64,000 nucleotides of DNA from a virus (taxonomy: Duplodnaviria; Caudoviricetes). The DNA lies in the IMG/VR virus record IMGVR_UViG_3300020046_005360, one strand, 5' to 3'. Position numbers and translations under genes: made by a program. This document shows, piece by piece, positions 3,020-23,330 of the stretch (position 1 is its first letter; each line of letters opens with the position of its first letter). Below the pieces are notes generated by a model. The model was not told where the DNA came from. It ran no database searches and saw only the letters and a program-made list of their open reading frames with translations.

Positions 3020-3640
3020 TTAATAATAAGTTGGTTCTCCCTTCTTGAAGTCTTTCCCCAAGTTTTCTATTACTTCCACTGCTTCTTTAACTGATATTTC
3101 AAAATATTCTCTACTACTTCCTTGATGGTTATTACATCTTAAGTGAGATAAATGTTTATGAACCAAGAATTCAACTAAATAATCGTCTACTACTGGTAGA
3201 GCGTATTTTAATACCCATTCTGACATTACACCAGCTCCATTTATCTGTTTAACTCGTTTTTGAGGATTAACAGCTTTACCTATCTTACATAGGTTTGGGT
3301 AAATAGGATTAGTTAAAATATAAACATATTTTCCGTCCTCATTATTCTGATCTAAAATTACTTTATTCTTCTGTTTCTTACCATATAAATAAACCCAATT
3401 CGTTGTTTGAGTTTCTGAATCATATGGTAATTGAATTTCAATATAATATTCAGGGTCTAAATAATCTAATAAATAACCTATATCTACCTTTCTATATTTA
3501 TTAGCTAAATCAACCCAATTTTGATACCATTTTGGGTTAAACATATTCCCTAATTCTATTTGATTGGTAAAGTAAACGAATATTTCATTCTTATTCTCTA
3601 ATTCAAGTGCTTGATCTAGAGTAATTTTTTGACGTCTCAT
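3020..3640 (-). CDS. T5orf172 / GIY-YIG-like (MUG113) domain protein
   Basis: YVYILTN...LCKIGK...KRVKQIN...E..VH..L...REYF. Confidence 0.8.
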   Translation of the reverse strand: MRRQKITLDQALELENKNEIFVYFTNQIELGNMFNPKWYQNWVDLANKYRKVDIGYLLDYLDPEYYIEIQLPYDSETQTTNWVYLYGKKQKNKVILDQNNEDGKYVYILTNPIYPNLCKIGKAVNPQKRVKQINGAGVMSEWVLKYALPVVDDYLVEFLVHKHLSHLRCNNHQGSSREYFEISVKEAVEVIENLGKDFKKGEPTYY

Positions 3641-4141
3641 TATATCTCTTCAATTTTATAAATACGTTTAAATACTCTAACATTCGCATGAAATAATGTA
3701 TAAGCATGATGGATATCGTTTGCTTTTAAATCCCATTCTAAATCAACACACTCGTCATTTATTTCTTTCCAATAATAAACTCTATATTTTCTCATTTAAA
3801 TAATATTTTTTATTTAAATTATGACATATTAAAGACATATCTTCAAATTTACCTTTATATATTTGAACTCCATCTTCTAATACTTCCCACTTTTTACCAT
3901 TTAAATCTAATGATTTTCTTTGATATTTTCTTTCCATAATAGGAGGCATTTTAACTTCTTGTGTAATAATTTTTATCATAATCTTAATTCTTTTTATTAA
4001 AGTGTTCTATTATTTCCTTTTCTGTATAAAATCTACTATATCCTTTCTGGACATATTTATCTCCTATTTTATTATATTTATTTAAATGTAAAATAAATTT
4101 ACTTAATATTTTTGAATCCATAACTCATCATTTTTATTTTC

Positions 4142-4196
4142 GTAAATATACGAACCTTTTCTAAATAAAGAAAGACCCTTGATTTCTCAAGAGCCT
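4142..4196 (-). promoter_or_regulatory. terminator of tRNA operon (4174-4196) followed by early promoter -7 box (TTCGTATATTTAC)
   Basis: Minus strand GGCTCTTGAGAAATCAAGGGTCTTTCTTT hairpin + U-tract, then recurrent promoter motif. Confidence 0.7.
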
Positions 4197-4339
4197 AATC
4201 TATAATCCAAATTTTTGTAATACCCCTAGAATTTGGAAACTATGCCAACCTACGATTTGGAGGACCTCCACGCCAACACCCGAAGGGTCTGTAATTCCTA
4301 TCTTCGATCCATATTCCTGCAGAAATAGAGGGCTAATTG

Positions 4340-4412
4340 TGGTCCATACGGGATTTGAACCCGTAACCTTCAAGTTATGAGCTTGCTTCTCTACCAGTTG
4401 AGATAACGGACC
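4340..4412 (-). tRNA. tRNA-Met/Ile2 (CAT)
   Basis: Cloverleaf; CAAG-CT CAT AA-CTTG; GGTTCAAATCC T arm. Confidence 0.88.
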
Positions 4413-4633
4413 GATTTTCATTACATGAGATTACTGTAACTAGATTTTAACGGTTCTTTTTCTTAAAAATTCAACCATTAGTGTCTTACCACATGAAACT
4501 AAAATCAACCTTCCGTGGAGGAGTTGGTAACATCCTTTTATCCAATCGGCCCCTTCTATAAAGTCGTAGACGGAACAACTATAACTTTTTAATGGTGAAG
4601 TTACAAACACTCTGAGTATCTCTTACTCATTAG

Positions 4634-4704
4634 TAGCGTAGTAAGGACTCGAACCTCGACCTCGGGTTATGAGCCCGTCATGTTACCAATTACACCAAAA
4701 CGCA
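4634..4704 (-). tRNA. tRNA-fMet (CAT, initiator type)
   Basis: GGG-CT CAT AA-CCC anticodon stem, unpaired 1:72. Confidence 0.8.
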
Positions 4705-4709
4705 ATTTG

Positions 4710-4780
4710 CTGATTAATAAGGGATCGAACCTTAATCCTGCTTGCGGTAAAGCTTGCTGTGCCCATTACACCATAATCAA
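4710..4780 (-). pseudogene. degenerate tRNA-like sequence, anticodon undetermined
   Basis: Acceptor TTGATTA/TAATCAG, D arm GGTGTAATGGGCAC, T arm GGTTCGATCC; anticodon arm malformed. Confidence 0.5.
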
Positions 4781-4833
4781 TCGATGACTTGCAAATCATC
4801 ATATATAGGTTAATTACTCCTATATTTTATCCG

Positions 4834-4907
4834 CGGTCTATGTGGGACTCGAACCCACGATCTCCTACGTGACAGGCAGGCGTCCACTCCATCTGGACCG
4901 ATAGACC
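4834..4907 (-). tRNA. tRNA-Asp (GTC)
   Basis: Cloverleaf, CCTGC-CT GTC AC-GTAGG. Confidence 0.92.
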
Positions 4908-4990
4908 AATTTGGCGATTTCATACTAGAATTTCCATTTTAGGAAAATCGAAACTCCCTCATTCGCCACGAGGTGGAACTGCATAAATTG

Positions 4991-5062
4991 TGGACCATAT
5001 GGGATTCGAACCCAACCCCTCTTACTTAAAGTAAACCATTCCAACCATTAAACTTAAAGCCC
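4991..5062 (-). tRNA. weak/degenerate tRNA with apparent TTA (ochre-suppressor) anticodon
   Basis: GGGCTTT/ATGGTCC acceptor with mismatch, loop CT TTA AG, GGGTTCGAATCCC T arm. Confidence 0.45.
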
Positions 5063-5152
5063 AATTAAAACAGTAACTATTCTTAAGTTTCGAACCTCTT
5101 AATAGCTTTTTAATATCCTTAGACGCTGTTTCTTCCATCTAATTAACATGTG

Positions 5153-5225
5153 TGGAGTTACCGAGGATCGAACTCGGGACTAGAATTTGCAAAACTCTTA
5201 TTTTAGCCGATTAAACTATAACCCC
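5153..5225 (-). tRNA. tRNA-Ala (TGC)
   Basis: G3:U70, AGAGT-TT TGC AA-ATTCT. Confidence 0.9.
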
Positions 5226-5289
5226 AAATAAGTAGTAATCGTATAGTTGGAAATCATTGCGACTTCTCGGTGTAACTCATACTACTTTG

Positions 5290-5360
5290 TAGCCCGACGG
5301 AGTAACGATCTCCGGTTTCTGAATTGAAAGTACAGTATCCTACCTTTAGATGACCGGGCC
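5290..5360 (-). tRNA. tRNA-Glu (TTC)
   Basis: GGCCCGG/TCGGGCT acceptor, CT TTC AA loop, atypical T loop ATCGTTA. Confidence 0.8.
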
Positions 5361-5465
5361 AATTAAGAAATTTTAGCTTAATCTTTCTCCGTAAACTTAA
5401 TTACGCGCTTTAAATTTCTTATTCTTTAATATACGATTTGAAATTTTAGTATCCAAATCTTTTTG

Positions 5466-5539
5466 TGCAGATTGTGGGATTCGAACCCACGATATCCTAC
5501 TTGGAAGGTAGGCGCAATCGGCCGCTATGCGAAATCTGC
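5466..5539 (-). tRNA. tRNA-Gly (TCC)
   Basis: CCTAC-CT TCC AA-GTAGG. Confidence 0.92.
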
Positions 5540-5611
5540 AAATAATTAGAGAAGGTAGGTGAAGTCGTTATAACTAAAGGTTTACCAAACCATACCTATT
5601 TCTCTAATTTG

Positions 5612-5686
5612 TACTCAAGGTGGGAGTCGAACCCACAAAAATCTTGATCCTAAATCAAGCGCGTCTTCCAGTTCCGCCACTCAAGC
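5612..5686 (-). tRNA. tRNA-Leu (TAG), short variable arm
   Basis: CTTGA-TT TAG GA-TCAAG; Leu-type D arm GGCGGAA..GG..GACGCG. Confidence 0.85.
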
Positions 5687-5731
5687 AATTATATTTCCTT
5701 TATTCATTGTATAATATAAACCAATCCATAG

Positions 5732-5811
5732 TACCCCAGACAGGACTCGAACCTGTACCCTTACGGACAGCTGCTTAAAAGCTGCGTGTCTACCAATTTC
5801 ACCACTGGGGC
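5732..5811 (-). tRNA. tRNA-Leu (TAA)
   Basis: CAGCT-TT TAA GC-AGCTG with variable arm. Confidence 0.9.
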
Positions 5812-5961
5812 ATTTAAGGTGTATTATCCTATTATTACGAACTGTCTTATGACAATATCAGATTCGAACTGATATTTCCTTATTTTATCTTATGTAAGAT
5901 CACTTATCAATTTCGGTAGCGTCCTCTAGTTACTATGTAATAGAGGGTCGACTCTTAATTG

Positions 5962-6033
5962 AGGGTTTATAGAGGATCGAACTCTAAACTCTTAGTTTTG
6001 CAAACTAGAGGCTTAACCATCAGCCTTAAACCC
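5962..6033 (-). tRNA. tRNA-Cys (GCA)
   Basis: CTAGT-TT GCA AA-ACTAA, U73 discriminator. Confidence 0.85.
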
Positions 6034-6038
6034 GTATT

Positions 6039-6695
6039 TTAAAATCTATGTTTTTTACAAATTTCCCATAATTCGGGAATATGATTTTTTATAAATTTTC
6101 CTGAATATTGAGGTGTCCAATTCATTTTTTCACTAATTTTATTTCTCCAACCTGTTATTTTATAATCAACATCAAAATTTAATATTTCATTTTTACATTT
6201 TTCTATCCTAACTAAGTTAGAATCTTGTAAATTATTTATATCTTTTTTATTAGATGATTTTTTCTTATTTTTACTTTTATATGTATCTTGGATTGAATCA
6301 CAATTAGAACATAAAAATCTTAAATTTTGTAATCTATGATCATTATTAATTCCATTTTTGTGATCTAATACTAAGGGCATTATTTTACCTTGCCAATTTT
6401 CATCTTGACCACAACATTCACAAACATAAGGTATTAATTTCTTTTTTATTACTCTTAATCTAATTTTACCCCTAGGTTCATTTGAATCACATTTAAATAA
6501 ATCTTCATTAGTTATCCTATAATATGGATTTATATTATAATTTTTAAAATGAGATATATCTATATTATAGTTTAATATTTTATTATTTATAAAATCTCTA
6601 CTATTTCCATTCTTAATTTGAAGTTTATTTTCTAATTCACTCCAGTTATTACATTCTTTAATTAAAAGTTCTAAATTCTCTTTACTGTATTTCAT
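6039..6695 (-). CDS. free-standing HNH homing endonuclease
   Basis: CECCG...LDHKNGINNDHRLQNLRFLCSNC. Confidence 0.9.
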   Translation of the reverse strand: MKYSKENLELLIKECNNWSELENKLQIKNGNSRDFINNKILNYNIDISHFKNYNINPYYRITNEDLFKCDSNEPRGKIRLRVIKKKLIPYVCECCGQDENWQGKIMPLVLDHKNGINNDHRLQNLRFLCSNCDSIQDTYKSKNKKKSSNKKDINNLQDSNLVRIEKCKNEILNFDVDYKITGWRNKISEKMNWTPQYSGKFIKNHIPELWEICKKHRF

Positions 6696-6753
6696 ATTAC
6701 GTTATTTACACGTATAAATATATAAAAGTTGAACTTTTTATCGATTACTTTCA

Positions 6754-6787
6754 CAAACAGCTCCCTTAACCACTCGGGCATACTACC
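6754..6787 (-). pseudogene. orphan 5' half of a tRNA (probably Cys)
   Basis: GGTAGTATGCCCGAGTGGTTAAGGGAGCTGTTTG then breaks off at the anticodon just upstream of the HNH gene. Confidence 0.7.
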
Positions 6788-7007
6788 AAATAATAATTAA
6801 TAGGCTAATCTAATTATGGATTTAACAGACTTAGTATCTCGCCTGACCTAATATACTTCTTTATAAAGTATTATTAATTATTTATATTGTAAATATATGA
6901 ATAAATATTTTAAAAACCAAATTTATTTTGAATTACTTTTATTCTAAATCCAAACAAATAATAATATTTGTGCCACCCGTCATTGTTTATATAAAATATT
7001 CTCATGA

Positions 7008-7511
7008 TTAAAAAAGAATATATTTTTTCCAACTTTCGGGCACATCACCAACACTTTTGATTAACATTAGAAAGTGAGGTCGTTTTGGATCTGGAATTTC
7101 TCTACCCCATTCTTCTAAAGTTAAATCTGCTTTTTGACCATTACATTTTCTACATGCTGTAACGACATTTTCAAAAGTATTTTGTCCACCTTTCGAAGTG
7201 GGAAAAACGTGATCTAATGTTAATGTTTTTCGATCATCATCTCCACAATAAACACATTCGTAATTATCTCTTTTATAAACATTTTCTCTTGAAAATGGAA
7301 CTTTTTGATACTTTTGATTTACATATTTATTTACCTTTATAATAGAAGGTTTTTTAATTTTCAAAAGTGGATTAACTAAACGAAAAGTTTCATCATGTTC
7401 ATCTATAACTTCAGCATTTCCTTTATAAGAAATTACAAATGCTCTATCTGAACTTATAATACTCCGAGCCATATGGGCTGAGTCTATTACTAATGTTTTA
7501 TTCTGTTTCAT
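7008..7511 (-). CDS. HNH endonuclease (McrA-like)
   Basis: RDNYECVYCG...TLDHVFPTSKGG...NVVTACRKCN. Confidence 0.9.
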   Translation of the reverse strand: MKQNKTLVIDSAHMARSIISSDRAFVISYKGNAEVIDEHDETFRLVNPLLKIKKPSIIKVNKYVNQKYQKVPFSRENVYKRDNYECVYCGDDDRKTLTLDHVFPTSKGGQNTFENVVTACRKCNGQKADLTLEEWGREIPDPKRPHFLMLIKSVGDVPESWKKYILF

Positions 7512-7699
7512 AACTTATACTGTGTTTTTCTATTATATTTCCAAGAACGATATTCTCTGTATTTAAAAGAATAGATTCCACTCTTTTTACTCCAACAATC
7601 TTCCCAATACATAGGATATAATTCATCATATAAAATTCCTTTATATTCCTTATTACCTTGGGTTAACTTTAATTTTGTTCTTCTAGTGTTTATACTCAT
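7508..7699 (-). CDS. small basic phage protein (RSWK..RKTQYK type)
   Basis: C-terminal RSWKYNRKTQYK motif. Confidence 0.6.
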   Translation of the reverse strand: MSINTRRTKLKLTQGNKEYKGILYDELYPMYWEDCWSKKSGIYSFKYREYRSWKYNRKTQYKL

Positions 7700-7765
7700 T
7701 TTTACTCATTTTAGGTTATTAAACCTAATGAGCGTCAAATTTCTTTTTCATAATTATTTTATTAG

Positions 7766-7838
7766 CACAGACGATAGGAATCGAACCTACTCGAAACATG
7801 AGTTTTGGAGACTCACCGGCTACCTTAGCCTCATCTGT
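7766..7838 (-). tRNA. tRNA-Trp (CCA)
   Basis: TGAGT-CT CCA AA-ACTCA. Confidence 0.85.
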
Positions 7839-7916
7839 ATTTGGGTAGGTCGAACGCGTTTCGCCTACCGAGACCTCGTAGTTAGATAAATCCAGCGCTT
7901 ACCGAGACACCATTTG

Positions 7917-7988
7917 AACCCCTACTTGGACTTGAACCAAGATCAAAACGTTAGAAGCGTCTTATTTTTCCAATTAAACTATAGAGGC
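7917..7988 (-). tRNA. tRNA-Arg (TCT)
   Basis: AGACG-CT TCT AA-CGTTT. Confidence 0.88.
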
Positions 7989-7991
7989 AGT

Positions 7992-8280
7992 TTACCTAGA
8001 TTTCGTTCTAGGGAGACGTAAGCTATAAATACCTAGTATTTAACGCTTAACGACTTATTACGCCGCGTATGCAAAGTTGTCCTTTACGATAATATCAATC
8101 TCTTTTTATCTACTAAACCATAATCAAAACCTTTCATCCCCGTATAAGCTATTATATCAACATAATATTTAACAAAAAACCAAGCCGAACTTAATGTTTT
8201 ACTCCCATATCGAGTACTTGTGGAGATGCCGGTAATCGAAACCGGGTCTTACAGAACGTCTATAAACGTCAACAACTAAT
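7992..8280 (-). ncRNA. ssrA: circularly permuted (two-piece) tmRNA: acceptor piece ~8280-8221, intervening spacer 8220-8142, coding piece 8141-~7992
   Basis: 3' TLD GACCCGGTTTCGATTACCGGCATCTCCA precedes 5' TLD GGGGATGAAAGGTTTTGA; acceptor GGGGATG/CATCTCC with G3:U70; TTATGG/CTGTAA helix; tag frame VKDNFAYAA-TAA-TAA at 8087-8055. Confidence 0.85.
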
Positions 8281-8285
8281 ATTTG

Positions 8286-8360
8286 AACGCCAACGAGGAT
8301 TCGAACCTACGATATCTCTTAATCCGTAATTAAGTGTTTTTCCATTTAAACTATAAGCGC
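8286..8360 (-). tRNA. tRNA-Arg (ACG)
   Basis: CTTAA-TT ACG GA-TTAAG. Confidence 0.82.
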
Positions 8361-8456
8361 ATAAAGCTAATCCTTTCAATTAGCCGCTCGGATTAAGGTA
8401 CCAAGTTTAAGACAATTTTCATGTCGACCAGGACTTATACCCTTTGGGTATCGTCG

Positions 8457-8543
8457 TGTGAAAGATGGGACTCGAACCCACAAGTACATTTCTGTCACCT
8501 GATCCACAATCAGGCCCGCTACCAATTACGGACTACAATCACC
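8457..8543 (-). tRNA. tRNA-His (GTG) with unusually long variable arm
   Basis: G-1 start GGTGAT, CCTGA-TT GTG GA-TCAGG, extra arm TGACAGAAATGTAC. Confidence 0.8.
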
Positions 8544-8545
8544 AT

Positions 8546-9013
8546 CTATTTCTTATTCTTGTTTCCAACACAATGAGTATCTAAAGTAGAATTACAGTTT
8601 GGGCATACTATTCTTAAATTAAATAATCTATGATCATTATTAATTCCGTTTATGTGATCTATTATAAGACTCATTTTCTTTCCTCTCCATATTTCTCCTT
8701 GTCCACATAATTCACATTCTCTTTTTTTCAATCCAACATCATATAACCTCTTTTTAAGATAAGTTTTACTATAATTTGAATTTTCAATCATTATTTCTTC
8801 TAAAGAATATCGTCTATTAATATCAGAACAATTCTTTATTATCTGAGACCTAGTAAGGAAATGACTATCATCAATATTATATAATTTAATATATTTACCT
8901 AATTCAGCATACGCTTGACCTCCTTGAAACATTCCTAATTTACCTAAACATTCCTTTTTAGTGAATGAATTTTTAACAGCCTCTTCTACTATTTCTCTTG
9001 TATACTTCTTCAT
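8546..9013 (-). CDS. free-standing HNH homing endonuclease (paralog of 6039..6695)
   Basis: CELCG...IDHINGINNDHRLFNLRIVCPNC. Confidence 0.9.
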   Translation of the reverse strand: MKKYTREIVEEAVKNSFTKKECLGKLGMFQGGQAYAELGKYIKLYNIDDSHFLTRSQIIKNCSDINRRYSLEEIMIENSNYSKTYLKKRLYDVGLKKRECELCGQGEIWRGKKMSLIIDHINGINNDHRLFNLRIVCPNCNSTLDTHCVGNKNKK

Positions 9014-9063
9014 ATCATGTTTTAATATAAATATATAAGAGGGGTAAAGTAATTAATATATTT

Positions 9064-9095
9064 TCAGATGCTTTACCAATTCAGCTACGATCACC
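9064..9095 (-). pseudogene. orphan 5' half of tRNA-His
   Basis: GGTGATCGTAGCTGAATTGGTAAAGCATCTGA, truncated in the anticodon arm just upstream of the HNH gene. Confidence 0.75.
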
Positions 9096-9204
9096 ATATT
9101 AATTAAATAAGGGTTGAGAACTACCTGCGGCTATTTCTATTCATCTCTATACTAGTTATCGTACGTTCTAATATAGCACCACATTTCAACCCTTATTTAA
9201 TTCG

Positions 9205-9272
9205 TACCGAGTACTAGTAACGATCTAGTCTAAAAATGGATATGAGCCATTCTCGATCCCTGATCACTCGGC
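9205..9272 (-). tRNA. tRNA-Met (CAT) with minimal D arm
   Basis: GCCGAGT/ACTCGGT acceptor, AATGG-CT CAT AT-CCATT, D arm GATC-AGG-GATC. Confidence 0.7.
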
Positions 9273-9332
9273 GGCTTCTATATACTTTTCGAAAAGTAAT
9301 GGTAGTATAGACACTATTATTCCATGTTTCTG

Positions 9333-9417
9333 CGGAGACTATGGGGTTCGAACCCATGTAGCTTTTACACCCTACTTGTTTAGCAAACAAGCCTCTTTAC
9401 CATTTGAGTAAATCTCC
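9333..9417 (-). tRNA. tRNA-Ser (GCT)
   Basis: CTTGT-TT GCT AA-ACAAG, long variable arm, G73. Confidence 0.92.
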
Positions 9418-9450
9418 AATAAGGTACTCACTCGCGACACTTTCCCTTAG

Positions 9451-9524
9451 TACTCATAGTAGGATTTGAACCTACGACCTTCATCTTATCAGGATGCTTA
9501 TCTACCTAGCTGATATATATGAGT
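9451..9524 (-). tRNA. tRNA-Ile (GAT)
   Basis: CATC-CT GAT AA-GATG. Confidence 0.88.
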
Positions 9525-9531
9525 AATTTTG

Positions 9532-9605
9532 CTCCCCAACCAGGACTTGAACCTGGAACCTACGCATTAACAGTGCGCCGCTCTAACCAATTGAGCTATT
9601 GAGGA
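9532..9605 (-). tRNA. tRNA-Asn (GTT)
   Basis: GCGCA-CT GTT AA-TGCGT. Confidence 0.93.
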
Positions 9606-9684
9606 ATAATTCTTGTCTTTCCAAGTGTCAACCAGAGCTACAGTGAACGTCTTCTATGTATTATTTTCATAGTTGGATTTATCG

Positions 9685-9756
9685 TGGACCTGGTCCGATT
9701 TGAACGGACGACACCCACGGCTTCAACGTGGTGCTCTACCCCTGAGCTACAGGTCC
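9685..9756 (-). tRNA. tRNA-Phe (GAA)
   Basis: CCACG-TT GAA GC-CGTGG. Confidence 0.92.
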
Positions 9757-9817
9757 AATTACTACTTTGATTTGGACACAGGACAAAGTAGTGAAAACAC
9801 CTCCTGCAATTTATTAG

Positions 9818-10051
9818 TTATTGGTGGTGTTTTTGATAACGACCAAATTTATCTATTCGTAAATTCATACGTGTTAAAGATAAATTCCAATTACTAAAGT
9901 TAGACAATCTAGTTTTTGATTGTGCTTGTTTTAAAGCACTAATCTCTGCTTTTGAACGATCCTTATCTGTTGTTTCAACATAATAAGTGGGAGCTTGAGC
10001 ACCAGTCTGACTGGTAGGAACTACTCTCCAAATTCTAATTTGCGTATCCAT
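9818..10051 (-). CDS. hypothetical protein in tRNA operon
   Basis: ORF track; preceded by uORF + hairpin. Confidence 0.6.
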   Translation of the reverse strand: MDTQIRIWRVVPTSQTGAQAPTYYVETTDKDRSKAEISALKQAQSKTRLSNFSNWNLSLTRMNLRIDKFGRYQKHHQ

Positions 10052-10103
10052 AATTTTAGCTAATAGCTAAAACCAGGGAGGAAATTCAATTGTCTTCATA
10101 AAT

Positions 10104-10385
10104 TTACTTTCTACAATATTTTTCAACATCTTTTTTTGTCCAACCTCTGAATATTTTCATTCGATTATCTTTTTGTTTATCTTCATAAACAATAAATTTA
10201 TAATCACAATAATCCCATTGGTTATAAATTGTTTTTCTAGCTGTAAATGAAAAATCTTCATCCCAAAATTTGGAACTATTCATTTCATTATTCCAAACTC
10301 TTCTAATTGATCTCCAATATAAAGATGTTCTTTTGTAATTTCTTGGTTTATCTTTTATCCAAGGTTCTCTTCTACTTCTTGACAT
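10104..10385 (-). CDS. small basic phage protein (MSRSRR...WD..D type)
   Basis: MSRSRREP start, NQWDYCDYK, ends RK. Confidence 0.65.
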   Translation of the reverse strand: MSRSRREPWIKDKPRNYKRTSLYWRSIRRVWNNEMNSSKFWDEDFSFTARKTIYNQWDYCDYKFIVYEDKQKDNRMKIFRGWTKKDVEKYCRK

Positions 10386-10449
10386 TTTTTCTAAGTTACT
10401 CGTTAGTACTTAGAATAGTGAATGTTTCATAGTTAATAATTTAAATTTG

Positions 10450-10527
10450 TGGGAGTAGAAGGACTCGAACCTTCGTGTGATATCTCGGGGTTACAATCCG
10501 ATGCAGTCGCCGCTGTGCCATACTCCC
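10450..10527 (-). tRNA. tRNA-Tyr (GTA)
   Basis: TCGGA-TT GTA AC-CCCGA. Confidence 0.85.
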
Positions 10528-10572
10528 AAATACACTTTCCTACTTGACCGTCTAAGTGTGAAACCCATCTCG

Positions 10573-10646
10573 TACTCCCTGTAGGATTTGAACCTACGAC
10601 ATCTTGTATGTAAAACAAGCGCTCTCCCGGACTGAGCTAAGGAAGC
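10573..10646 (-). tRNA. tRNA-Val (TAC)
   Basis: CTTGT-TT TAC AT-ACAAG. Confidence 0.9.
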
Positions 10647-10706
10647 GGTTTGCGTTTACTCTTGCAAGAGCTAATGTGGTACGCATACACCATTATCATT
10701 ATTCTG

Positions 10707-10778
10707 TGCTCCCGGAGAATTTTGAAATCTCGACTCCCATATTAAAAGTATGGTGCTCTTCCTCTGAGCTACGAAAGC
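10707..10778 (-). tRNA. tRNA-Lys (TTT)
   Basis: CCATA-CT TTT AA-TATGG. Confidence 0.88.
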
Positions 10779-10838
10779 AAAATCTAATTCTACGCTTACA
10801 ATATGTAGTTCTATGAATTAGTAACAGTCTCGTCTGTG

Positions 10839-10915
10839 TCGGGATAGCCGGAATCCAACCGGCGAATCTCATGTTCCCAAAACATGCGGGTTCTTGCATC
10901 TGCCCTAGTATCCCG
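10839..10915 (-). tRNA. tRNA-Pro (TGG)
   Basis: CGGGATA/TATCCCG, CATGT-TT TGG GA-ACATG. Confidence 0.85.
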
Positions 10916-11027
10916 TGTTCGACTTCGTTTTTGCGAGAACGTTGTCAATAAACTCACTAAACTCCCTCAGATTATTAATCCTGTCTTATTCAGACCTCTT
11001 CAGATTTATTATCCTGTCTAGATTTTG

Positions 11028-11099
11028 TTACCTATGGTGGAATCGAACCACCCTTAATTGCGCCAAAAACAATTGTAATAACCGATATACGAATAGGCA
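11028..11099 (-). tRNA. tRNA-Gln (TTG)
   Basis: ATTGT-TT TTG GC-GCAAT, U1:A72. Confidence 0.85.
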
Positions 11100-11105
11100 A
11101 AATTG

Positions 11106-11197
11106 AAGTGGGTGTGAGATTCGAACTCACGGAGCGCTTTTGACACGCTCTCTAGTTTTCAAGACTAGCGCAATAAGCCGGACTCTGCCAACCCACC
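11106..11197 (-). tRNA. tRNA-Ser (TGA)
   Basis: CTAGT-CT TGA AA-ACTAG, long variable arm. Confidence 0.92.
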
Positions 11198-11293
11198 ATT
11201 TATTATCGAAATGTCAAATAACTTATCGTTTTTAATTTGAGTAAATATACGATTCTAATTTTTAAAATCCAAATCTACTTATAAAAACTTTTG

Positions 11294-11366
11294 AGCCCTC
11301 GATAGGTTTCGAACCTACCACCTTCTGAGTACAAAACAGACGCTCTACCAAATGAGCTACGAGGGC
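11294..11366 (-). tRNA. tRNA-Thr (TGT)
   Basis: TCTG-TT TGT AC-CAGA. Confidence 0.9.
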
Positions 11367-11397
11367 AAAAAGAAACCCGTCTTTTTGGGACGGGTTT
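11367..11397 (-). terminator. intrinsic terminator/attenuator immediately 5' of first tRNA
   Basis: AAACCCGTC-CCAAAAA-GACGGGTTT-CTTTTT. Confidence 0.8.
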
Positions 11398-11424
11398 AAT
11401 ATAATGTTTTTAAATTACCATTAC

Positions 11425-11532
11425 TTAATTTCCGTCCATATTGGGATTCGGTTGAGTATTATACATAACAAGATCCCATGCGATCGAATTAATCGTTCTA
11501 AAAGTCTCGTTTATGTGTTTACTATGTTTCAT
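11425..11532 (-). CDS. putative 35-aa leader peptide of the tRNA operon
   Basis: MKHSKHINETFRTINSIAWDLVMYNTQPNPNMDGN*; its 3' end GGACGG is complementary to the terminator 5' arm CCGTCC. Confidence 0.55.
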   Translation of the reverse strand: MKHSKHINETFRTINSIAWDLVMYNTQPNPNMDGN

Positions 11533-11702
11533 ATGTATATAAATATGTATCTTTTTCTCAAAACGTGAGAAATTTATCCTTCTATTGTTCCTCCTTGTGG
11601 ACTACCATACCATGTTGAACCTTGTTTCATATTAATTATTTTATTTGGAAATAATAAGTGACTTTCACTTATTCTTGTTTATGTAAATATACGAATAAAT
11701 AT

Positions 11703-11933
11703 TTAGGAATCCAACTTTTTATAAGATAATCTTTTAATATCTTGATATAAAGTATGTTTATTACTAATTTCAATTTTATCCCAATTATCCCAACGAAAAG
11801 GATAATAATCTTTTAATTTTATATCTCCGTTCCATAAATACCCCAATGATTGGAGTTTATTACTAATTACACTCCATTCCCTTCTTTTTACTATAATAGG
11901 AAATTCAATATTTCGAGGATTATTTACTTTCAT
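11703..11933 (-). CDS. MK(V/I)NNP-family hypothetical protein
   Basis: MKVNNP...FPI...L..LG(Y/W)...P shared with 19087, 55952, 62960. Confidence 0.7.
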   Translation of the reverse strand: MKVNNPRNIEFPIIVKRREWSVISNKLQSLGYLWNGDIKLKDYYPFRWDNWDKIEISNKHTLYQDIKRLSYKKLDS

Positions 11934-12053
11934 CCTAAAAGTATTGAAAATAATATAACTATTCCAAAAACTATAGTAAATCCAATTCTAAAGAAACTAA
12001 TCATCATACTTCCTCCCATTTGAGAAGAAATATCTTCTGCTAATAACCATCTT

Positions 12054-13636: not shown

Positions 13637-13906
13637 TCAATAAATATCATATATTGGTTCTGAATAAATATCATTTGGTACTAGTTCAAAATACTCTCTA
13701 TCTAAATTAATAGAGTATCTATTCTTTTCGGGATGAAACCAAAGTGAATTATTATCCCAATTTGATTTTAAAACCCAAGTTTTATCTCCTACTCGTAAAT
13801 CAGGAGGAAAAGAATGACTATAACTATGATTACCTTTATAAGGTCTAACTAATGTAATCCATACTACTTCTTTACCTTTCGGTATTTCACTATATTTGTA
13901 ACTCAT
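13637..13906 (-). CDS. YEIY-tagged small protein (YDIY variant)
   Basis: Ends SEPIYDIY*; own promoter at ~13926. Confidence 0.8.
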   Translation of the reverse strand: MSYKYSEIPKGKEVVWITLVRPYKGNHSYSHSFPPDLRVGDKTWVLKSNWDNNSLWFHPEKNRYSINLDREYFELVPNDIYSEPIYDIY

Positions 13907-15025: not shown

Positions 15026-15397
15026 TTGTAAATATACGATTAGTATATTATAAATCCACTACCTGAATTATATTATTTTTAATCATTAAATTTAATTTTT
15101 CCAATACAAGTATAGGTTTTATTCCTTCCTCTTTACTTATTTTATTAGAAAATTCTTCTAAAGAAATGAAGTTATTTTCACAATAATCTCCACTTTCATA
15201 CATACCTGCATCTGCAATTAATCTTTCGTTATCATTGAAATCTTCATAATAGTCATAATCTTCATTTTCAACTAAATTGTTGATTCTCTCTAATTCTATT
15301 TTTGAATTTGGTGTTAATTTAATTTCCATTTTATTATATTTTATATTTTTATTTATCTTATTTTGTAAATATACGATTAGTATATTATAAATCCACT
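15026..15397. repeat. 35-bp perfect direct repeat (15026-15060 and 15363-15397) containing the early promoter
   Basis: TTGTAAATATACGATTAGTATATTATAAATCCACT x2. Confidence 0.85.
15048..15329 (-). CDS. acidic hypothetical protein (true start MEIKLTPNSK at 15329)
   Basis: Track start 15506 runs through promoter DNA; internal ATG follows the promoter. Confidence 0.65.
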   Translation of the reverse strand: MEIKLTPNSKIELERINNLVENEDYDYYEDFNDNERLIADAGMYESGDYCENNFISLEEFSNKISKEEGIKPILVLEKLNLMIKNNIIQVVDL

Positions 15398-15594
15398 TCC
15401 TTATATAAATAACTTTCTTTTTCCACCATACAATTTCCAAGAAATGTAATTGTAAATAATGACTAAAATTGACTTTTTCATAACTGATTGTTTTAATTAT
15501 TAACATTTTACTTAAACGATTAAGTAACTTACTTAATCTTACTTTGGTAAATATACGAACGTATTATTTATATAACACGTCCGTATATAATATG

Positions 15595-15909
15595 TTAAAT
15601 GTTTTTAACCCACAATGGGAGTTTTAAATTTTCTAATACCCATATCGTATCTTTCCTCCCATGTTTTTCAATTTCAATAATGATATTATTGTAACCATGT
15701 TCTTTTCTAACTCTAGTAATAACCCAATTCATTTCATAATAATTATTATTTATTGGGTATTCTTTTGGTTTTATAACACAATGTCCATTATTATCCAATT
15801 CACAATCTCCCCAAAATTTTTGTTTTAATATATGTAATTCATTACCTATTGGGTATAAATTTTGACACTCATTTAATAACTCTTTCGAATAAACATAAAA
15901 TACACTCAT
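15595..15909 (-). CDS. hypothetical protein
   Basis: ORF track; own promoter ~15944. Confidence 0.6.
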   Translation of the reverse strand: MSVFYVYSKELLNECQNLYPIGNELHILKQKFWGDCELDNNGHCVIKPKEYPINNNYYEMNWVITRVRKEHGYNNIIIEIEKHGRKDTIWVLENLKLPLWVKNI

Positions 15910-16439
15910 AATTGATTTGTTTATATTATTTAAATCTTATATTGTAAATATACGAACATATAATTAGTAAATCTCGTCCCTAATTAAGTAATTATTAGGT
16001 TTCAATAGCAACGACCTCGTTCATATAAACAAAGAATTACCTAAAATAGACATTAATGAATGTTATTAGGTATTGGTATTATATCAGACGGTAAGAACGT
16101 TATTATAGTTACCTTAATTATGTTACGTTCTTGCTCCTGCACTTACCTCATTCTTATACGTACTATGACGGGAGGGTCGGATTTCACTACTAATGACGTG
16201 TATAAATACCAAATATTTCTAGGAACTTGTATATACTTTTAAAGTTAGTAACGAGGGACGTGGAAAATGCATGCAAGTTCTAGACATGACTAGCTCAACT
16301 CTAGTTTTCGTTTATCTAACTCATCGTTTAGAGCGCTCTAAACTTCCATTTTCATCACCCACAAACACTTATTAGATATATCACCCACTTGAAGCCTGCG
16401 ATATAACATGCTATTCTTCATTAAACACGACACTCTATG

Positions 16440-16703
16440 TTAATATATTTCATATACAGTATCCACTTTATTATCGCTTATTAACACGATATCATTAAAT
16501 TGGAATATCCAATGGCCATCATTCCTTTTACGTGGCATTGTAATACCACGACCACTATCCATATAAATGTTATATGAATTATCTATGTCCTGTCCCAAAT
16601 AACAATTCATTAATCCCTTGTTATTCCATCCTCTAGGACAACCATCTGACCATTGTTTATCACGAATGAATTCTTCCCTAGTTTTGAATCTATACTTTGC
16701 CAT
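16440..16703 (-). CDS. YEIY-tagged small protein (KYRF.T.EEF family, paralog of 24460)
   Basis: Ends DTVYEIY*. Confidence 0.8.
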   Translation of the reverse strand: MAKYRFKTREEFIRDKQWSDGCPRGWNNKGLMNCYLGQDIDNSYNIYMDSGRGITMPRKRNDGHWIFQFNDIVLISDNKVDTVYEIY

Positions 16704-16744: not shown

Positions 16745-17488
16745 TTAATAATCTCTTCCTCGTTTTAATTTCATAAACGATCTAGAATCATATTCATTCT
16801 TAATATCCTTGATTTTACCGCTATTTAATAAATCAATTAATTGGTATTTAATGAAATCAGCATCCATAGCTAATGAATGTTCTATTACATTAGTAATTTT
16901 CCCATCCCAACTATTTTGTTTTAAAAAGTCATTATTGAATTCGAATTTATATTCACCCTCTTCAGTTCTTGCTTCACAACTATAATTTAATTTATCAATT
17001 TGACTTATTAAAAACATATACGAAAGAAATGTTGGACTACCTATTATATAAGGTATATCCCCATCATTGTGTGCTCTATATTGGATATATTGTATTGATC
17101 TGAATATTTCACCAATTAATGTTTCGCTTGGGCCGCTTTGTTTTATATTCTTTTCCTCAAATGTTTTGGTTAATAGTTTTAATTCGTCTCCAACTCCATC
17201 CCGTGGGAATCTTTCTACACTATGATCAGGACGTCTTATTCTATCACCATTTATTCTCCTATATAGATTATGTTCCATATCATCTTGAGTTAGATTAATA
17301 TATTCTCCTATATCGATCATACCCGCTTCTAAATCATAGTTGCTTATTTGTATACCGGCTTTTTTAGCAATTTTTTGTTCAATGTTCTTTTCATAACATG
17401 TGATATAAAAATTGGGATGTTTGTTTTCCTTTAATTGGTTTACGATATCAACAGATATTCTTAATTTTTGAGTTTTAGATAATTCCAT
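16745..17488 (-). CDS. hypothetical protein (247 aa)
   Basis: Long ORF with own promoter ~17513. Confidence 0.7.
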   Translation of the reverse strand: MELSKTQKLRISVDIVNQLKENKHPNFYITCYEKNIEQKIAKKAGIQISNYDLEAGMIDIGEYINLTQDDMEHNLYRRINGDRIRRPDHSVERFPRDGVGDELKLLTKTFEEKNIKQSGPSETLIGEIFRSIQYIQYRAHNDGDIPYIIGSPTFLSYMFLISQIDKLNYSCEARTEEGEYKFEFNNDFLKQNSWDGKITNVIEHSLAMDADFIKYQLIDLLNSGKIKDIKNEYDSRSFMKLKRGRDY

Positions 17489-17548
17489 GACTATTTAATT
17501 TATTAATTTTGGGTAAATATACGATTATATTATTAGTATAACTCGTCC

Positions 17549-17773
17549 CTAATAAATTTCATAAACAGGATTAATTTCTTTCCTTTCGTATGGTTTGAAT
17601 GAAGTATAAGACCAACTTCTTGTTTTGAATCCATTTCTGTTATATCCATTACCTTCAATAACGACACCACTAAATGTTTTACTTTGTCCAATAGGAGAAG
17701 TTAAACCATCTTCCAAGGCTTCGACTATTTGTCCTAATTTTGAAATGTATAGATTTCCTTTAATTATTTCCAT
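17549..17773 (-). CDS. YEIY-tagged small protein
   Basis: Ends INPVYEIY*. Confidence 0.8.
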   Translation of the reverse strand: MEIIKGNLYISKLGQIVEALEDGLTSPIGQSKTFSGVVIEGNGYNRNGFKTRSWSYTSFKPYERKEINPVYEIY

Positions 17774-17775
17774 GG

Positions 17776-18081
17776 CTAGTAAATTTCGTAAATTGGTTGT
17801 TGTGGTCTTTGTTTTAAATATGATTCTTTACTCATATATTTGTTCTTCTCTATACAGTATTCTAACCAACCGATTTCTTCATTAGTTGCTTCTCGATATG
17901 TTCTTTTTTGGCCATTTCCACCATAACTCCAATCAGCATTTTTATTATAACATCCTTTATTTATGAATTGTGCTTTACTACGATAATACCCATCATCATC
18001 TAATCTTCCATTAGATAATGCTATACCTATCATCCAAAAACCTCCACTATCTTCTACTTTGTAATATTTACCCTCTTCCAT
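17776..18081 (-). CDS. YEIY-tagged small protein (T.EE..WL..CI family)
   Basis: Ends QQPIYEIY*. Confidence 0.8.
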   Translation of the reverse strand: MEEGKYYKVEDSGGFWMIGIALSNGRLDDDGYYRSKAQFINKGCYNKNADWSYGGNGQKRTYREATNEEIGWLEYCIEKNKYMSKESYLKQRPQQPIYEIY

Positions 18082-23043: not shown

Positions 23044-23099
23044 AATCTTTGTTTTTAATTTAATTGTTTGTTAATTATTGTTTTTATTAATTTTACTTT

Positions 23100-23330
23100 G
23101 TAAATATACGAATTTAAATTTTGGAATCCTAATTGTTTTACGAAAATCTTTATTTTCTTTTTAGGACTTTATGGATCAAAACTTACATTAATATATGAAC
23201 TTTAATACTTTGTAAATATACGATTCTAATTTTTGGAATCCAAATTTACTTTTAAGAAAAGTTTGAAATGTTTTTTATTTTAATACTTATCTTATTTTGT
23301 AAATATACGAATTCAAATTTTAATATCAAA
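23100..23330 (-). promoter_or_regulatory. three tandem Bacteroidota-type early promoters
   Basis: (T/A)TCGTATATTTAC at ~23100, ~23212, ~23299; the 23212 copy has TTTG 20 nt upstream. Confidence 0.8.

Follow-up and report, generated by a model that had tools for sequence, protein, structure and literature searches.

The question raised by this locus is how the 5' halves of two tRNA genes came to stand in a phage tRNA array, each ahead of an HNH endonuclease gene and an intact tRNA gene. The stretch of DNA analyzed here (the window, 64,000 nucleotides) belongs to a large phage, has 29% GC, and carries an array of 25 tRNA genes on the minus strand. Small shares of the words of the window were present in 20 public runs. 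A promoter-like motif, YRTATATTTAYA, occurs 22 times in the window, with every copy on the minus strand, versus 1.0 copies expected. An earlier note, made from the letters of this DNA, had described in the array two orphan tRNA halves, two HNH genes and two intact tRNAs, and each of these elements was confirmed, on the minus strand, at the positions given below. The note had proposed that each HNH gene belongs to a mobile cassette of a nuclease and an immune tRNA, which inserts in an anticodon arm and complements the damage. That interpretation was largely supported, with four qualifications: the new tRNA-His is at least partly chimeric, the immunity and the cut site are deduced from the junctions, the wider HNH family usually has another layout, and there are alleles that have the new tRNA and no nuclease. 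We consider it probable that HNH-A and HNH-B, the two genes, belong to a family of free-standing homing endonucleases specialized for phage tRNA arrays, and that each arrived in a cassette together with a tRNA of the same isotype as its target.

At the first locus, the stump of a resident tRNA-His gene (9064-9095, minus strand; G-1 and positions 1-31) ends with the final base in the 5' strand of the anticodon stem. It was identified from its match to contigs of two metagenomes (X3 and X4, described below) and to the tRNA-His of relatives, being identical at 29/31 positions to the 5' half of a 74-nt tRNA-His present in at least 11 IMG/VR relatives, which include L079, L088, L091, L093 and L119-L121. 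The stump is followed on the same strand by a 50-nt leader (9014-9063) with the promoter-like motif TATATATTTATA at 9026-9037, by the HNH-A gene (8546-9013, 155 aa), the stop codon of which is 2 nt ahead of the G-1 of the next tRNA, and by a working tRNA-His(GTG) of 87 nt, or 88 nt with the G-1 at 8543 (8456-8543; called by ARAGORN at 8456-8542, with an Rfam score of 41.8 bits). Relative to the resident type, this new tRNA has a re-spelled D arm and a variable arm that is 13 nt longer, and its acceptor, anticodon arm, T arm and 3' end are those of the resident type, the anticodon stem-loop being nearly the same (CTGATTGTGG[A/T]TCAGG). The replacement tRNA-His is intact and divergent, as had been claimed, but its T arm and 3' end do not differ from those of the resident gene, and this identity places the right-hand junction inside the tRNA. 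Since the T arm is common to both, the new tRNA-His is at least partly chimeric and is not demonstrably a wholly imported gene. An exact scan of metagenome contigs for its long variable arm gave no match. The long-variable-arm class of tRNA-His was also found in unrelated arrays, distant from any HNH gene, which indicates that the new spelling was not invented for immunity. Within the phage group, at least four types of tRNA-His occupy this same array position.

At the second locus, the resident tRNA-Cys stump (6754-6787, minus strand; positions 1-34) ends at the first anticodon base. Its assignment is based on an X4 contig and on matches to tRNA-Cys genes, which made up 7 of its 10 top hits, with 25-28 of 34 positions identical to the tRNA-Cys of L076, L126 and L122. 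Next on this strand come a 58-nt leader (6696-6753) with TATATATTTATA at 6713-6724, the HNH-B gene (6039-6695, 218 aa), with its stop codon 5 nt ahead of the following tRNA, and a replacement tRNA-Cys(GCA) of 73 nt (5961-6033; ARAGORN; Rfam 43.6 bits) whose spelling is very different from that of the resident type. At least five types of tRNA-Cys are found at the same array position within the phage group. In view of the complete tRNA of the same identity, differently spelled, that lies downstream at each of the two loci, the phage retains both tRNA functions.

The two HNH proteins are paralogs, as had been suggested, sharing 38% identity (E 6e-26), with a C-terminal extension of ~70 aa in HNH-B. 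Both matched PHROG 10822, "HNH endonuclease" (HNH-A, E 9e-37; HNH-B, E 9e-32). HNH-A also matched the Pfam HNH family PF01844 at 23.5 bits, above the cut-off of 21.4; HNH-B had no match of its own in the Pfam search and is related to the family through its alignment with HNH-A. Profile searches of the two proteins matched HNH families only, with no GIY-YIG domain. In an alignment of 120 homologs, the residues that are invariant for the HNH motif (columns conserved at 97-100%; C100, C103, W109, D119, H120, G123, N132, C137, N139 and C140 in HNH-A numbering) are all present in both proteins, and the series CxxC...DH.NG...N...CPNC is fully retained in HNH-A. Since these residues have been kept, both enzymes look active. 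The closest relative of HNH-B (48% aa identity) lies at a different array position, in L074/L075, and all metagenome relatives of HNH-A were at most 60% identical, meaning that there were no closer filled sites among them.

The state of each locus before the HNH gene was present could be read from relatives. Two independent metagenomes, an aquatic run from 2018 (X3) and a freshwater run from 2022 (X4), yielded assembled contigs with flanks 98-100% identical to the window in which the HNH genes are absent. At the His locus, contigs from both runs join 9064 to 8483 through 15 other letters, and ARAGORN identified the result as a 74-nt tRNA-His. At the Cys locus, a single X4 contig (1312 nt) joins 6754 to 5964 through 36 other letters, giving a 74-nt tRNA-Cys by ARAGORN whose 3' acceptor strand pairs 7/7 with the stump, and has 0 mismatches to the window across 5900-5964. 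Thus, as the earlier note had predicted, relatives that lack the HNH genes have intact tRNA-His and tRNA-Cys genes that begin with the orphan halves, and in no relative lacking the HNH gene did the halves stand as orphans. Compared with the empty alleles of these near-identical relatives, the stumps were identical at 33/34 and about 34/34 positions; exact-pattern scans of IMG/VR for either stump gave no match. Given that the exact halves are the 5' parts of complete tRNA genes in contigs without the HNH genes, the stumps are not chance resemblances. Furthermore, the window lacks the letters that are unique to the empty alleles (the short variable loop for His and the whole 3' half for Cys), and for that reason the empty forms cannot be deletion products of the filled form.

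Comparison of the empty and filled alleles defines the inserted DNA. In tRNA-His, a 580-nt segment (8484-9063, minus strand) replaces 15 nt, corresponding to the anticodon loop, the 3' strand of the anticodon stem and the short variable loop, and in tRNA-Cys a 789-nt segment (5965-6753, minus strand) replaces the 36-nt 3' half, with the last 4 nt of the tRNA (CCTC) and the downstream flank common to both alleles. Each cassette interrupts the resident tRNA gene at the anticodon loop, behind position 31 for His and position 34 for Cys. For Cys the whole 3' part of the resident gene has been replaced, and for His the replacement stops at the T arm. The inserts contain only leader, HNH ORF and tRNA sequence: the leader with its promoter-like motif, HNH-A and the 5' two-thirds of the new tRNA in the case of His, and the leader, HNH-B and almost all of the new tRNA in the case of Cys. 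Neither an integrase or recombinase gene nor att repeats were among the contents of the two inserts.

A further class of allele appears to have retained the new tRNA after loss of the nuclease. HNH-A is absent at the same locus from L145 as well as from the X3 and X4 contigs, and HNH-B is absent from L074, L076 and L126 as well as from the X4 contig. L145 has the identical 87-nt tRNA-His with no HNH gene and no stump; in pairwise alignment it differs from the window by a clean gap of 552 bp (8546-9097, minus strand; stump, leader and HNH-A), which is bounded by an 8-bp direct repeat, ATGGTGAT, at 9090-9097 and 8538-8545, and both flanks of which are 97-99% identical. Similarly, L074 and L075 have a tRNA-Cys identical to the new tRNA-Cys of the window. 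The 35 nt ahead of it in these two genomes are similar to the HNH-B ORF at its 3' end: when the comparison for L074 was anchored by position, none of 2000 shuffles reached the score, and the controls L076 and L126 were negative, but an unanchored local alignment of the L074 spacer with HNH-B was no better than shuffles (z -0.3), so that the anchored test alone was significant. The new tRNA-Cys and about 120 nt downstream of it are ~99% identical between the window and L074 compared with 70-90% elsewhere in the array, a picture that strong RNA constraint could also give. We infer that L145 (His) and L074 (Cys) are probably alleles of this retained type.

These observations suggest the following mechanism. 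A cassette in which a short leader bearing a phage promoter-like motif precedes the nuclease ORF, with a tRNA of the target's isotype right behind the stop codon, would enter a resident tRNA gene at the anticodon loop, leaving the resident 5' half upstream as a dead stump. The nuclease would then cut the un-invaded tRNA gene of a co-infecting relative in or near the anticodon-loop DNA, and repair would copy the cassette, with homology supplied on the left by the stump and on the right by the shared T arm or the downstream flank. The carrier would escape cutting because the insertion has divided the target and the new tRNA has a different sequence in that region. In time the nuclease gene may be lost and the new tRNA allele stay, as we propose for L145 and L074, resulting in turnover of tRNA sequence at a fixed locus. 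It is the positions of the junctions that point to cleavage in the anticodon arm and to immunity of the new tRNAs, and the putative cut site is placed solely by the end points of the stumps. As the anticodon stem-loops of the new and resident tRNA-His are nearly the same, the immunity of the new tRNA-His, if real, must rest on the changed D arm, the variable arm or the split site.

The wider HNH family is found almost exclusively in phage tRNA arrays (~150 homologs). Of 156 complete homolog ORFs, from 153 loci, 95 are preceded on the same strand by a tRNA whose end lies 20-110 nt from the ATG, and in 47 cases a tRNA begins no more than 15 nt from the stop codon. The cultured phages Michonne and Francesca have the same tight packing of tRNA and HNH genes; in Michonne, a gap of 266 nt precedes the HNH gene, and inspection by eye revealed no obvious stump in it. 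Across ~55 relatives with a syntenic array, HNH paralogs lie at different inter-tRNA sites in different genomes, and L074 has two of them at sites that are empty in the window. In the usual layout of the family, the HNH gene is flanked by a pair of intact, unrelated tRNAs, and same-isotype flanking tRNAs were not enriched (7/36 homologs versus a baseline of 27%); as such, the layout of stump plus replacement is one outcome and not the rule. A BLAST search for tRNA fragments upstream of the 52 homologs without an upstream tRNA, a scan with little power when no close relatives are available for comparison, gave five matches above the 95th shuffle percentile, of which a single one (L053) was a 5' fragment near the ATG. 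Given so few stumps, this layout may be uncommon, or the detector may be insensitive.

The prevalence of homologs between two intact tRNAs lends some support to a different origin for the stumps, in which two complete tRNAs of the same isotype flanked an intergenic HNH gene and the sensitive upstream copy lost its 3' half, possibly after self-cleavage. The distances from stump end to ATG (50 and 58 nt) are also those usual in the family between the end of a tRNA and the ATG (mode 60-80 nt). We nevertheless regard decay of a tandem copy as quite improbable, since the empty alleles have a single tRNA whose 5' half is contiguous with the left flank of the window and which runs on into the right flank through its T arm and 3' end in the case of His and through its last bases in the case of Cys, and since the His right-hand junction is inside the tRNA, which fits insertion into one gene rather than two genes and a deletion. 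Somewhat more credible, though still unlikely, is that stump, HNH gene and new tRNA were made once in a different phage and arrived by ordinary homologous recombination across the conserved array, with the nuclease driving nothing now. Cleavage is, after all, read from sequence, the arrays in the phage group are highly mosaic, and L145 and L074 retain the new alleles without the HNH gene. Against passive spread of this kind are the intact HNH-A and HNH-B ORFs with complete catalytic residues and their own promoter-like motif, the near identity of the stumps to the empty alleles of near-identical relatives, and the occurrence of the same type of event twice in one array with diverged paralogs.

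That the halves are exons, of a tRNA split by an HNH-bearing intron or of a trans-spliced tRNA, was the objection that the earlier note had itself raised, and we consider it excluded for practical purposes, its probability being vanishingly small. Group I introns with homing endonucleases do occur in tRNA anticodon loops (PMC3984707). However, Rfam at E<=1 across 4000-12000 gave no match to Intron_gpI or any other ribozyme (the stumps themselves went unreported as well), only 50-58 nt of non-coding leader is available, and each HNH gene is followed by a complete tRNA. A search for acceptor complements found no missing 3' half on the right strand and in the right place within 15 kb, and the true 3' halves exist only in the relatives without the HNH genes. 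One candidate for a lost 3' half, TACTACC at 9307, was rejected because it has no T arm ahead of it. Possible decayed T-loop remnants in the leaders (GTTCAAC for HNH-B and CCCCTCTT for HNH-A) were matches too short to claim.

The closest known system to these cassettes is SegB of phages T4 and T6, a free-standing GIY-YIG homing endonuclease whose gene lies in a phage tRNA cluster. It cuts inside tRNA genes, is co-inherited with neighboring ones, is not present in close relatives and, across many phages, shows a statistical association with tRNAs (PMC2330249; PMC13096335). HNH-A and HNH-B are likewise free-standing nuclease genes among phage tRNA genes that are absent from close relatives, but they have an HNH rather than a GIY-YIG fold. 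SegB recognizes the T-loop coding sequence (motif GGTTCRANTCC) at the 3' end of the tRNA gene (PMC2330249; PMC13096335), whereas the junctions here, at the anticodon loop after positions 31 and 34, hint at a different target. Neither of these two reports describes SegB inside a broken tRNA gene beside a same-isotype replacement. HNH endonuclease genes have also been noted in the tRNA arrays of mycobacteriophages and actinophages, with a suggested role in tRNA repertoire diversity (PMC6409571). These belong to the same superfamily as HNH-A and HNH-B, an example being gp94 of Rhodococcus phage Francesca, which is 40% identical to HNH-A and lies between two tRNAs with no spacer, but they have been annotated or discussed in general terms only; no description of a stump plus replacement, nor any comparison of empty and filled alleles, was found for them in the literature searched. 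More generally, we found no published description of this layout for an HNH gene.

In the classical homing cycle, endonucleases borne by introns and inteins are gained, become fixed, decay and are lost. The loci described here resemble them in that the element sits in its target gene, at or close to where the cut presumably falls, and splits the recognition site, and in that empty, filled and nuclease-lost states are all present among relatives, but there is no splicing: the element brings in a second copy of the gene, partial or whole, and function is thereby restored in the DNA itself. Islands and prophages that are driven by an integrase also enter tRNA genes and reconstitute the end of the gene. 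There too a tRNA gene is the target, the element carries part of a tRNA and an intact gene persists; in contrast, no integrase or att recombination is involved here, the 5' part is duplicated and not the 3' end, and the probable route is copying by repair once a nuclease has cut.

Within one phage group, two loci thus provide a natural series of un-invaded and invaded alleles and of alleles in which the nuclease was apparently lost and the tRNA kept. They suggest that a selfish nuclease can break a useful gene at no cost to its carrier by supplying a substitute, and nuclease-linked tRNA replacement would explain why orthologous array positions in related phages differ strongly in sequence. The empty and filled alleles are also substrates for determining the specificity of a large, uncharacterized HNH family. 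More tentatively, we speculate that this family could be a distinct mobile element that homes to the anticodon-loop DNA of tRNA genes with a same-isotype tRNA "patch" instead of an intron, and that its repeated invasion and loss might be a main engine of allele turnover in the arrays, a proposition that we would sooner doubt than assert. Phage tRNA arrays have been linked to escape from host defenses that cut tRNAs, and SegB indicates that homing nucleases reshape arrays (PMC13096335). If the broader proposition is true, unusual alleles, such as class-I tRNAs with long variable arms, could be among those spread by this turnover, and such alleles may also resist the tRNA-cutting defenses of the host.

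The arrangement described in the earlier note, in which an orphan 5' half of a tRNA gene, an HNH gene and an intact tRNA gene of the same isotype succeed one another at two sites with paralogous nucleases, proved to be real when both sites were read on the minus strand. The nuclease genes inside the tRNA-His and tRNA-Cys sites, HNH-A (8546-9013, 155 aa) and HNH-B (6039-6695, 218 aa), both belong to PHROG 10822 and are paralogs (38% identity, E 6e-26) with a common four-part layout on the minus strand: a tRNA 5' half (the stump), a leader, the nuclease ORF, and a complete same-isotype tRNA that begins 2 to 5 nt past the nuclease stop codon. The His stump (9095..9064, minus strand) comprises G-1, the acceptor strand, the D arm and the 5' strand of the anticodon stem, and the Cys stump (6787..6754, minus strand) extends up to and including the first anticodon base. 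A search near the stumps found no 3' half whose acceptor strand would pair with theirs, and the Rfam intron models gave no match around the two sites. Both nuclease genes are intact, with every residue that is invariant in a 120-sequence family alignment, and each has its own promoter-like motif: the leaders (50 nt for HNH-A and 58 nt for HNH-B) hold TATATATTTATA, a variant of a motif with the consensus CGTATATTTACA. That motif (YRTATATTTAYA) occurs at 22 sites in the window (for example, 11682-11693 and 23099-23110), exclusively on the coding (minus) strand, versus 1.0 expected, and we infer that it is probably the promoter element of the phage.

Assembled contigs of four public metagenome runs were compared with positions 5900-9400 of the window, and nuclease-free relatives whose intact tRNAs start with the orphan halves, as the earlier note had predicted, were identified at the His site in runs X3 and X4, which are from separate studies, and at the Cys site in X4. 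The X3 contig (6.6 kb; 98% identity over 7838-8483) and the X4 contig covering the His site both pass directly from 9064 to 8483 via 15 other letters. The resulting empty allele is precisely of the 74-nt tRNA-His type, and consists of the stump, an anticodon loop, the 3' stem and a short variable loop, followed by the T arm and 3' end of the 87-nt tRNA-His of the window (8456-8543). For Cys, a 1312-nt contig of X4 runs from 6754 into 5964 via 36 other letters, with no mismatches over 5900-5964, and forms a 74-nt tRNA-Cys in which the stump and the 3' acceptor strand pair at 7/7 positions. ARAGORN called both joined forms as normal tRNAs. The insertions and their positions are thereby defined: at the His site, 580 nt (8484-9063) comprising the leader, HNH-A and the 5' two-thirds of the new tRNA-His, including its long variable arm; at the Cys site, 789 nt (5965-6753) comprising the leader, HNH-B and the new tRNA-Cys (5961-6033) minus its last four bases. 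In both, the 3' part of the resident tRNA has been lost and a complete substitute is present. The possibility that the empty alleles are deletion derivatives of the filled form was ruled out because the letters unique to them are absent from the window, and the direction was therefore from empty to filled.

Three allelic states exist among close relatives, the third having the new tRNA but no nuclease. The IMG/VR contig L145, which is 97-99% identical to the window on either side of the His site, has the identical 87-nt tRNA-His and neither stump nor HNH-A; the two sequences differ there by a clean gap of 552 bp with the 8-bp repeat ATGGTGAT at its boundaries. We read this state as nuclease loss by deletion between the repeated tRNA starts; a less likely alternative is that the 552 bp arose by insertion into an L145-like genome. 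In addition to this candidate deletion, a second contig, L074, has the identical new tRNA-Cys with HNH-B absent. The 35 nt upstream of its tRNA resemble the last HNH-B codons in an alignment anchored to the start of the tRNA (score reached in 0/2000 shuffles; controls L076 and L126 negative), and an unanchored search of the upstream sequence against HNH-B was not significant. L074 and the window share about 99% identity over the new tRNA-Cys and about 120 nt downstream, versus 70-90% for the rest of the array; this tract could reflect either co-conversion or strong constraint.

Using a neighboring protein and the conserved third HNH gene of the array as queries, we obtained about 55 IMG/VR contigs in which the array is syntenic (...Ile, Ser, His, (Leu), Arg, Arg, (Trp), conserved HNH, Cys, Leu, (Thr), Gly, Glu, Ala, Asp, Met). 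HNH-A or HNH-B occupied the two sites of the window in none of them. PHROG 10822 paralogs lie elsewhere between the tRNA genes of L074/L075 (two sites, both empty in the window), L078, L083, L086, L096 and L098. Such a spread over different sites is typical of mobile nuclease genes. In L074 the paralogs lie at 15886-16569, after tRNA-Gly, and at 17133-17831, after tRNA-Asp; the tRNA just upstream of each is very unlike its window ortholog, the outer flanks are 90-95% identical, and a T-arm scrap, TTGGGTTCGAGT, lies between tRNA-Asp and the HNH leader.

Several very different tRNA sequence types occupy the His and Cys positions among the relatives. The His stump is identical at 29/31 positions to the commonest 74-nt type, with which the new tRNA-His shares the acceptor, the anticodon arm and the last 27 nt; its D arm is re-spelled and its variable arm is 13 nt longer. 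The Cys stump resembles the tRNA-Cys of L076 and L126, the closest HNH-less relatives, and the new tRNA-Cys is of another type, identical to that of L074. The common His type of the phage group (window 8456-8543; L079, L088, L091, L119-L121) has two conserved acceptor-stem U-U mismatches (5:68 and 6:67), both retained, with covariation at 4:69, in a degenerate His-like gene in L074. Many class-I tRNAs in contigs L001-L073 (His, Pro, Gly, Asp, Glu, Gln, Thr, Arg and Val) are 83-94 nt long, apparently because their variable arms are long (for example, L006 3972-4061, L015 2620-2709 and L010 2080-2169), and are found in arrays that also hold PHROG 10822-type HNH genes.

The window (29% G+C, all long ORFs on the minus strand) is part of a large phage, based on an ORF set that includes DNA polymerase, GroEL, DNA ligase and glycosyltransferases. 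Its tRNA array spans 11366 down to 4339, with 23 genes called by ARAGORN, two more by Rfam, and three HNH genes. The third (7008-7511, minus strand) encodes a 167-aa HNH_5-type protein of a different HNH family and does not belong to the arrangement described above; a 63-aa ORF (7508-7699, minus strand) precedes it and overlaps its start by 4 nt. This HNH gene looks fixed rather than mobile, since about 55 relatives have it at the corresponding place in the array (61-82% aa identity). Its HNH domain partially matches IscB and Cas9 models. At the downstream edge of the array, a 206-aa protein (3020-3640, minus strand) has weak PHROG matches, including the "homing endonuclease" phrog_18411 (E 1e-6).

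Other structured elements, all on the minus strand, were observed nearby. A tRNA-like gene at 9205-9272, whose anticodon loop contains CAT and whose T loop is unusual (GATCGTTAC), was not called by ARAGORN or Rfam; it is kept in L074 (13623-13696, 89% identity) with a compensatory acceptor-stem change and is nearly identical in L145. Between this Met-like gene and the His stump is an element of ~106 nt (9098-9203) closed by the inverted repeat AATAAGGGTTGA...TCAACCCTTATT. At its place L074 has a 102-nt weak Rfam tRNA match (13693-13794, 33.9 bits), and the X3 contig has GTTT instead of the whole element, which is therefore another insertion/deletion difference. Between two tRNA-Arg genes, 8058-8267 gave a sub-threshold Rfam permuted tmRNA match (42 bits; gathering score 47). 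Just downstream of tRNA-Cys, 5850-5960 is a conserved structured element with a T-arm-like hairpin (ATCAGTTCGAATCTGAT) and compensatory changes in L076; next to its counterpart L074 has a weak Y-RNA-like (YrlA) match (15333-15410, E 0.06).

Scans of IMG/VR and metagenomes for the wider nuclease family yielded 153 loci with 156 complete homolog ORFs. In 95 of these the ATG is preceded by a tRNA on the same strand that ends 20-110 nt away, and in 47 a tRNA starts no more than 15 nt past the stop. Similar behavior was seen in cultured phages (Citrobacter phage Michonne gp141 and Rhodococcus phage Francesca gp94). In the usual arrangement, two intact tRNAs of differing isotypes flank the HNH gene. 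As same-isotype flanking tRNAs were not enriched among the homologs and a tRNA-fragment scan upstream of 52 homologs that lack a preceding tRNA found few further stumps, stump plus replacement is one outcome of family activity and may not be the commonest. In L045, an HNH homolog ORF has at its 3' end a perfect 34-nt duplicate (1537-1570) of the 5' half of the tRNA-Glu that follows (1657-1730); here the stump is on the opposite side of the nuclease gene, and it too ends at position 34.

The closest studied system is SegB of T4/T6, a free-standing GIY-YIG nuclease encoded in the tRNA cluster; it cleaves within tRNA genes, with the T loop as target, and carries neighboring tRNA genes along (PMC2330249; PMC13096335). 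Unlike the two sites in the window, these accounts do not include a broken target beside a same-isotype substitute. Earlier work mentions HNH genes in the tRNA arrays of actinophages in general terms (PMC6409571), and a non-exhaustive literature search found no published description of the stump-plus-replacement anatomy.

The comparison of empty and filled alleles supports the interpretation put forward in the earlier note, a cassette of nuclease and replacement tRNA inserted in a tRNA gene; cleavage specificity and tRNA immunity are putative. The nuclease would cut within or close to the anticodon-loop DNA of the un-invaded tRNA gene, and repair from an invaded genome would copy the cassette, with homology arms provided by the stump and by the shared T arm or flank. 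The carrier may be protected by its split target and re-spelled tRNA. The anticodon stem-loop of the new tRNA-His is nearly the same as that of the resident, so any immunity must rest on the D arm, the variable arm or the interruption itself. Nuclease ORF and tRNA would be co-transcribed, with RNase P releasing the tRNA right behind the stop codon. This tRNA-array nuclease element is documented by an unusually complete natural set of alleles.
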